Origin: a phage
Sequence record: PZ386951.1
DNA length: 64,000 bases
Direction: 5' to 3' (one strand)
Shown here piece after piece: positions 14,079 to 14,426 of the stretch; positions within the stretch are counted from its first letter, which is position 1; each line of letters opens with the position of its first letter. The notes beneath the pieces were generated by a model. That model was not told where the DNA came from, searched no databases, and saw only the letters and a program-made list of their open reading frames with translations. The translations under genes were made by a program, and so were the position numbers.

Positions 14079-14426
14079 TCAATACGGTTTAGCATCAAAT
14101 TTTCTCTCAATTTCAGGTGTGAAATATAATTCTTTACCACGTTTGGAAAAGCGACCAATAATATGATAATTATTCTTATCAAACGTAATATTACCAATAT
14201 CCATAGCTTTCAACCAAATATCGATATTTCTATCCAGCTTTATGTCAAAATTCCAATACGGAGAACTATTACCGAAAATACTGCAAGCGGATTCAGTGAA
14301 ACAACTGCTATAAATCTTGTCTTTAGGAACTACTAATTGATAGACACCTTTAATAAACTGAGGACCTTGCCATTTTGGCTGTTTCGCGTCTTTTTCTAAT
14401 AGAATAGGGTAATAATTAAAATTCAT
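14079..14426 (-). CDS. hypothetical protein (115 aa) between frd and td
   Basis: ORF overlapping frd 3' end by 11 nt; no motif recognised. Confidence 0.5.

Follow-up and report, generated by a model that had tools for sequence, protein, structure and literature searches.

A PHROG 1928 gene between frd and td in a T-even phage and its probable horizontal acquisition

The DNA analyzed here, a stretch of 64,000 nucleotides from sequence record PZ386951.1 that is referred to as the window, is a genome segment of a T-even phage of the genus Tequatrovirus, and it carries a 115-aa ORF (ORF115) between the genes for dihydrofolate reductase, frd, and thymidylate synthase, td, where T4 has no gene. The explanation that best covers the observations as a whole, and one that we consider rather probable, is that ORF115 is an accessory gene, gained horizontally at an overlapping frd/td junction and later fitted more tightly into it, which encodes a dispensable binding module. 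As a difference from T4, ORF115 is a common case of gene presence versus absence and no new element; hundreds of T-even genomes already have the ORF annotated, so that finding it here is routine accessory-gene polymorphism and does not amount to a discovery.

The frd–td slot and the ORF115 family

The genes concerned run on the minus strand of the window in the order gene 32, frd.3, frd.2, frd.1, a DUF7247 ORF, an 85-aa ORF, frd, ORF115, td, nrdA.2, nrdA.1 and nrdA. The features of the slot are as follows.

14079–14426, minus strand: ORF115, 115 aa, ATG start, RB32ORF229c/PHROG 1928 family, 'a' type (ORF call, PHROG match)
14416–15030, minus strand: frd, dihydrofolate reductase, 204-aa allele (ORF call, comparison with T4 Frd)
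13203–14063, minus strand: td, thymidylate synthase, intronless, 286 aa, divergent allele (ORF call, tblastn, sliding-window identity)
14064–14078, minus strand: spacer between ORF115 and td, 15 nt (alignment to T2, sequence read-out)
14416–14451, minus strand: extended 3' end of frd, with 11 added codons and a TAA stop (codon read-out, alignment to T2 and T4)
14450–14454, minus strand: run of five A residues, A3 in T2 and T4 (alignment to T2 and T4)
14445–14452, minus strand: left copy of the 8-bp direct repeat AAATGAAA, the ancestral frd Lys-stop over a vestigial td-type ATG AAA
14058–14065, minus strand: right copy of AAATGAAA, the functional td start, with the ATG at 14063–14061

An earlier note on this DNA had placed an extra 115-aa ORF between frd and td and had described the two genes as adjacent or overlapping in T4, and both statements are borne out: the ORF call confirms the gene at 14079–14426, and in the T4 genome (NC_000866) the last frd nucleotide is 145109 and the start codon of td extends to 145112, which gives a 4-nt ATGA overlap with no intervening gene. 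The note had also proposed an insertion of roughly 350 bp. The ORF is indeed extra relative to T4, and an insertion is favored over a T4-specific deletion as argued below, but the size has to be revised, since alignment of the window, T2 and T4 puts the extra DNA at 389 bp in the window and 417 bp in T2. The implied unusualness of the ORF did not hold, because most close relatives of T4 and at least eight other genera carry it in the same place; the counter-case named in the note, a homologous ORF at this site in T4 and its relatives, thus proves half true, in that T4 is without the gene and most of its close relatives have it.

ORF115 is a genuine coding gene and not a chance ORF. This rests on the excess of long ORFs over shuffled sequence (68 stop-to-stop ORFs of at least 115 aa in the window versus a mean of 1.9 in shuffles, ∼35-fold), on the 14 nucleotide differences from T2, 13 of which are synonymous and one nonsynonymous, on matches to phage proteins and to PHROG 1928 (E = 2.8e-35, spanning residues 4–111), and on an AlphaFold2 model with a pLDDT of 90. 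The substitution pattern indicates that the gene is under purifying selection within the genus, and we propose that it is an expressed-type gene.

A tblastn search with ORF115 matched 555 phage records, 363 of them with at least 90% identity, and DNA matches over at least 80% of the query were found in 351 of 534 records. The gene is therefore present in about 363 of about 534 Tequatrovirus records, or approximately two-thirds of the close relatives of T4. The carriers include T2, T6, RB5, RB14, RB32, RB51 and Shfl2 (Shfl2p237), all with the gene in the frd–td slot and with the annotation RB32ORF229c or "hypothetical protein," whereas the remaining third, which includes T4, RB55, RB59, HY03 and SG1, is without it. 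The RB32ORF229c/PHROG 1928 proteins of T2, T6, RB14, RB32, RB51 and Shfl2 represent the same gene at the same position. ORF115 is 97 to 100% identical to the annotated proteins of T2, T6 and the RB phages, and an identical protein is already in GenBank from phage vB_EcoM_FJ1. Although the protein is alike, the window differs from the T2/RB-type carriers in pairing the gene with a 204-aa Frd allele, a spacer shorter by 30 bp and a divergent td.

At least eight further T4-like genera have more distant relatives, at 30 to 66% identity, in this slot, and tandem pairs of paralogues are frequent among them. The relatives at 30 to 47% separate frd from td in Kanagawavirus, Jiaodavirus, Roskildevirus, Moonvirus, Winklervirus, Muldoonvirus and Klebsiella phage kv_tblp8, and two metagenomic T4-like contigs have a copy at 63 to 66% identity between the same genes. 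All 14 of the 14 IMG/VR loci have the slot occupied by the family. In Mosigvirus, Dhakavirus and Gaprivervirus, frd and td overlap by ATGA as they do in T4, and no family gene is present. In protein searches, family E-values reach 1e-21 to 1e-71; an exhaustive phmmer run over 1.84 billion representatives returned only 15 clusters, all of 99 to 116 aa, and profile searches added only stand-alone proteins of 115 to 148 aa, encoded by phage genomes that measure about 170 kb. Across three large protein searches there were no domain fusions or informative names, only stand-alone T4-like phage proteins of 99 to 148 aa. As judged from these sequences, family members are found only in the frd–td slot of T4-like phages, either as one copy or as tandem 'a' and 'b' genes.

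The tandem paralogue 'b' matches the family profile with E-values of 1e-7 to 1e-15 and has an insertion of ∼20 residues after the QKKW motif. It is 113 to 124 aa long, contains the conserved insertion ALVxxGxxPTIExYKRNP and lies between 'a' and td in six of the collected loci (L002, L005, L006, L011, L014 and L015); the 'b' proteins of Roskildevirus and Muldoonvirus are longer (135–145 aa). A third and unrelated ORF, 'c', of 69 aa occurs in kv_tblp8 and in metagenomic contig L014, with 82% identity between the two. No paralogue of ORF115 was found by HMM search in the window or in T4 at 1 to 50 kb and 138 to 148 kb, and for T4 at 50 to 138 kb the absence rests on tblastn. One apparent fusion protein of 195 aa (P0050, locus L016) was set aside as uninformative, as it comes from a locus with duplicated and split genes that looks rearranged or misassembled. 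In that locus (OR941409.1, 3642–6681), the 195-aa ORF consists of a copy of the upstream 120-aa ORF followed by the last ∼35 residues of a Jiaodavirus-type 'a', td is in two parts, and nrdA fragments are inverted.

The family itself deserves to be flagged, as it is compact, is predicted to fold with confidence, has tandem paralogues and is strictly tied to the frd–td slot. Literature searches on RB32ORF229c/PHROG 1928 and on the frd–td junction found no relevant paper, the searchable literature gave no expression, binding or phenotype data on ORF115, and the ORF is unmentioned in reviews of the T4 genome and of T4 mobile elements.

Junction anatomy and the origin of the extra DNA

The extra DNA is bounded on both sides by the 8-bp direct repeat AAATGAAA. 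The junction in T2 reads ...GTGTAT-AAATGAAA-TAACGCGTGGCGGAAAAT-ATG(ORF)...TGA-(45-nt spacer)-AAATGAAA-CAATACC(td), and that in T4 reads ...GTATAT-AAATGAAA-CAATACC, with a single copy of the repeat. Across 5.3 kb of T2, AAATGAAA occurs only twice, 417 bp apart and at the two cassette borders; in the window, the copies at 14445–14452 and 14058–14065 are the only ones between 12000 and 17000. The junction in the window differs from that in T2 at two points, namely two extra A residues before the frd stop and the loss of 30 bp, at a point between 14072 and 14073, from the spacer that separates ORF115 from td.

The two added A residues (A3 to A5, 14450–14454) carry frd past its ancestral TGA stop (14447–14449) to a new TAA stop 8 nt inside ORF115. 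Frd is consequently 204 aa long in the window, compared with 193 aa in T4, with 97% identity across residues 1 to 193. The 11 extra C-terminal codons claimed in the earlier note are thus real, but the overlap with ORF115 amounts to 11 nt (14416–14426) and not to 11 codons. Nor does the extension belong to the insertion, as the note had supposed: it is a separate 2-nt frameshift allele, and T2 has the same cassette together with a normal 193-aa Frd. An A5 allele of the same length is found in RB3, RB5, RB6, RB7, RB9, RB10, PhiZZ30, Phaginator and others, and RB18, phiD1 and others have the A3 allele, as do T2 and T4. The recurrence of the same-length allele in RB3, RB5 and other phages shows that A5 is a real allele and no sequencing error. 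A frd stop situated within ORF115 is a layout that would be suited to coupling by termination and reinitiation.

For the direction of the indel, we favor with some confidence an insertion in the lineage of the window and T2 over a deletion in T4, on the basis of the junction shared by the cassette-less phages, the grouping of T2 Frd with cassette-less lineages and the anomalous similarity of 'a' to its counterpart in metagenomic contig L014. T4, Mosigvirus, Dhakavirus and Gaprivervirus share an identical overlap of frd (...VYK*) with td (ATGAAA), with the junction TA(T/C)AAATGAAA, and the left border of the T2-type cassette is exactly this junction, with a vestigial ATGAAA retained; genera with integrated family members have different and longer Frd tails. 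The identity of T2 Frd is 95% to T4, 79% to Dhakavirus, 62% to Gaprivervirus and 56% to Mosigvirus, and it is 44 to 54% to the cassette-bearing lineages. In comparison with contig L014, the identity is 63% for ORF115 'a', 48% for Frd and 18 to 49% for the other small ORFs, and because 'a' outscores Frd and the small neighbors, the Tequatrovirus 'a' allele appears to be younger than its backbone. When L014 is compared with kv_tblp8 and Q7622, 'a' falls behind Frd: the identities are 36% and 50% for 'a' and 63% and 61% for Frd. Taken together, the junction anatomy and the gene-by-gene divergence favor a horizontal gain at a frd/td overlap that was the ancestral state.

The converse, that the gene was ancestral in the slot and inherited vertically in Tequatrovirus and that T4 and the other cassette-less T-even phages lost it between the AAATGAAA repeats by slippage or illegitimate recombination, seems unlikely to us. 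In its favor, the family occupies the same slot across at least ten lineages, the segment is flanked by a perfect 8-bp direct repeat of which T4 has exactly one copy, and a lambda-style deletion between the two copies in a T2-like ancestor would yield the exact T4 junction. Exact 8-nt repeats are common in the AT-rich DNA here, and stop/start overlaps of the AAATGAAA type recur elsewhere, for example at the frd/ORF junction of Muldoon. T4 is also without two small ORFs upstream of frd, which suggests that it is gene-poor in this region, and the order DUF5417, DUF7247, orf85, frd and 'a' in the window mirrors that of distant T4-like contigs; this shared order could mean that T4 is a reduced form. 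A deletion, however, requires the same precise event in Mosigvirus, Dhakavirus, Gaprivervirus and T4-type phages, or else a re-spread of the deleted form. It also leaves unexplained why Frd of T2 ends at VYK*/ATGAAA when genera with an integrated family gene have extended tails, and why the similarity of 'a' to L014 exceeds that of Frd and the small neighbors. As for traces of a donor, homology to a donor frd tail in the left flank of T2 was not significant, and what might be left of paralogue 'b' in the spacer of T2 was marginal (p about 0.02–0.04 in single tests, before correction for multiple testing), so that neither was given weight.

An insertion might also have been brought about by the gene itself, if ORF115 were a homing endonuclease gene of the free-standing kind, or some other self-mobile element, with the frd/td junction as its target. 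Such a reading takes its start from the annotation "putative homing endonuclease" in the BASEL records MZ501050, MZ501066, MZ501089 and MZ501106, and it agrees with the position of ORF115 between two conserved genes, with its variable presence within the genus, as seen for seg and mob genes, and with the 8-bp duplication flanking the cassette. We nevertheless regard it as highly improbable. ORF115 has no match to GIY-YIG, HNH, LAGLIDADG or PD-(D/E)xK domains, even at E-values up to 10, 18 family members have no relevant Pfam match, no acidic, His or Cys residue is invariant in the family, and a structural search with the ORF115 model found no nuclease-like fold and no nuclease among its structural neighbors. 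At 115 aa, the protein is shorter than the Seg and Mob proteins of T4, the cassette has no terminal inverted repeats, and no element at frd/td appears in the review of T4 mobile elements. The target-site duplication expected for an insertion sequence is present, in that AAATGAAA stands at both borders, but it is also explicable by recombination at a stop/start overlap, and the cassette has neither the terminal inverted repeats of an insertion sequence nor, in its sole ORF, any similarity to a transposase. ORF115 does resemble the seg and mob genes in being a small ORF wedged in a nucleotide-metabolism cluster and variable among T-even phages; it differs from them in having no nuclease motif, nuclease-like fold or catalytic residues and in the stable synteny of its orthologues across genera at ∼30% identity, which is unlike the sporadic occurrence of homing endonuclease genes. 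The label in the BASEL records is therefore unsupported, because no nuclease domain, structural neighbor or invariant catalytic-type residue accompanies it, and a misleading public annotation can be corrected; the homing endonuclease cargo for which the earlier note had suggested a search is not present at frd/td. ORF115 also resembles moron-type insertions, which are likewise single extra ORFs between adjacent intact genes, dispensable and horizontally exchanged; it differs from them in that no promoter or terminator belonging to the gene itself is convincing in the window, and it would depend on read-through from frd and on coupling.

Under the horizontal gain that we favor, the events can be pictured as follows. 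The ancestral state in Tequatrovirus was most likely a direct frd/td ATGA overlap, as still found in T4, into which an 'a'-type gene would have been introduced by recombination with another T4-like lineage. A join located just past the first two codons of td would account for the 8-bp duplication of AAATGAAA. Later, the +2 frameshift in the A run would have lengthened Frd by 11 residues and placed its stop inside ORF115, making translational coupling possible, and the 30-bp deletion would have trimmed the spacer before td. The locus would thereby represent a clean example of one gene slotted into an overlapping ATGA stop/start operon junction and traceable as an 8-bp duplication, with later micro-adjustments that may have re-established tight coupling along frd–ORF115–td.

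Predicted fold and possible role of the ORF115 protein

The ORF115 protein has a pI of 9.0 and is rich in aromatic residues, and the pI of family members is mostly 8 to 9.4. AlphaFold2, supplied with an alignment of 18 sequences, gave a model with a pLDDT of 90 and a pTM of 0.83, to which DSSP assigns strands at residues 6–12, 27–34, 62–64, 80–82/86–96 and 99–104 and a helix at 68–77. The predicted order is therefore strand-strand-strand-helix-strand-strand, with strand 2 joined to strand 3 by a long loop. W19, G27, G91, K95 and G97 are invariant across 'a' and 'b', and L9, Q16, Y29 and F93 are nearly so; no Asp, Glu, His or Cys is invariant among family members, which makes a metal-dependent nuclease less likely and a binding module more so. 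Scans of ORF115 against Pfam, NCBIfam and PADLOC gave no match, PDB sequence searches with two profiles returned nothing below E = 0.09, and a structural search of BFVD retrieved only uncharacterized T4-like phage proteins. A match to dynein in the PDB search was dismissed as spurious.

On the basis of the model, ORF115 is predicted to be a small OB-like β-barrel. The model shares the order strand 1-2-3-helix-strand 4-5 with OB-fold domains such as those of RPA14/32, SSB, Stn1/Ten1, S1 and HIN, and the protein is, in addition, basic and aromatic-rich. Among the structural matches below threshold, OB folds dominate, and no superposition on a known OB fold was significant. If this prediction is correct, the protein may be a stand-alone, noncatalytic binding module of ∼13 kDa, which would be made early, along with Frd and Td, from the frd–td–nrdA operon. 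We suspect, tentatively, that its role is one of binding: its partner would most probably be a nucleic acid or another protein, and it would be an accessory to fitness or to the interaction with the host and not take part in core dTMP synthesis. ORF115 appears to be dispensable because T4 and three sister genera do without it. Its frame overlaps frd in the window, and in other genera the family frames overlap both neighbors; from these overlaps and from the position inside the prereplicative frd–td–nrdA unit, ORF115 is probably cotranslated with Frd and Td.

The restriction of the family to one slot raises the possibility of a dedicated accessory of the thymidylate cycle, either as a tether between Frd and Td, in the manner of a noncovalent analogue of DHFR-TS, or as a link into the dNTP-synthesizing complex. 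Every family member found sits between frd and td, usually with frames that overlap both neighbors, and the protein is noncatalytic, small and often present as two paralogues, all of which would suit such a function. Frd and Td of T4, Mosigvirus, Dhakavirus and Gaprivervirus work without the family gene, however, and the family evolves much faster than Td between genera (about 30% versus 75–80% identity). The conserved position is also explicable by inheritance together with allelic exchange through the conserved flanking genes, and we judge a dedicated role of this kind to be improbable. That the a/b family might constitute an unrecognized class of OB-like adaptors in T4-like phages, coupling DHFR and TS or binding their shared mRNA, is a long shot; if true, such adaptors would be a noncovalent counterpart of the eukaryotic bifunctional DHFR-TS with a fold that has no solved relative. 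For the accessory function that we prefer, as for these alternatives, T2 with the gene and T4 without it form a natural, isogenic-like pair for inexpensive functional comparison.

Promoter-like sites, small repeats and neighboring alleles

Just downstream of gene 32 (16685–16703, minus strand) lies a strong terminator-like hairpin, GGGGACC...GGTCCCC with a run of T residues behind it, and frd.3 is preceded at 16624–16652 on the minus strand by a promoter-like site (TTTACA and TATTAT, 17 nt apart, with TG upstream). The two probably mark the start of a transcription unit that includes frd, ORF115 and td. No terminator was seen in the scan between the gene 32 terminator (16703–16685) and td, and scans for σ70 promoters and terminators inside the cassette gave nothing convincing. 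The T2 spacer (positions 2849–2893 of our T2 locus, L007) contains TTTAGCTTCA, 12 nt and TAATTT, which by eye resembles a MotA-dependent middle promoter with a MotA box and a TAnnnT −10 element; this segment is removed by the 30-bp deletion in the window, and a σ70 scan there gave only a weak 9/12 site.

At the left border, the vestigial ATG AAA TAA lies in the frame of the ORF115 start, 24 nt upstream (2477–2503 in T2 locus L007, 14424–14449 in the window), and a sense codon in place of the TAA would put the start of ORF115 at an ATGA overlap with frd, as in contig L014. An imperfect direct repeat of 20 nt, TGGTTGAAACCCATTGGTAT in the 3' part of frd and TGGTTGAAAGCCATGGATAT in the middle of ORF115, is possibly due to chance; its copies are 85% identical in T2 (2416–2435 and 2711–2730) and 75% in the window (14494–14513 and 14197–14216).

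Upstream of frd on the minus strand, the window has a 119-aa ORF of the DUF7247/PHROG 3566 type (15272–15631), which is absent from T2 and T4, and an 85-aa PHROG 3183 ORF (15030–15287; RB32ORF231c), which is present in T2 and not in T4. On the other side of the slot, td is only 70 to 85% identical in nucleotide sequence to T2 and T4 over most of the gene (13245–14025), where T2 and T4 are 94 to 99% identical to each other. Both flanks of td are more than 92% identical while td itself is divergent, and the gene therefore looks like a recombination mosaic. Its protein is 85% identical to Td of T2; in comparison with exon 1 of some td genes that contain an intron, such as that of phage 236Ecol005PP, the identity rises to 99.5%.
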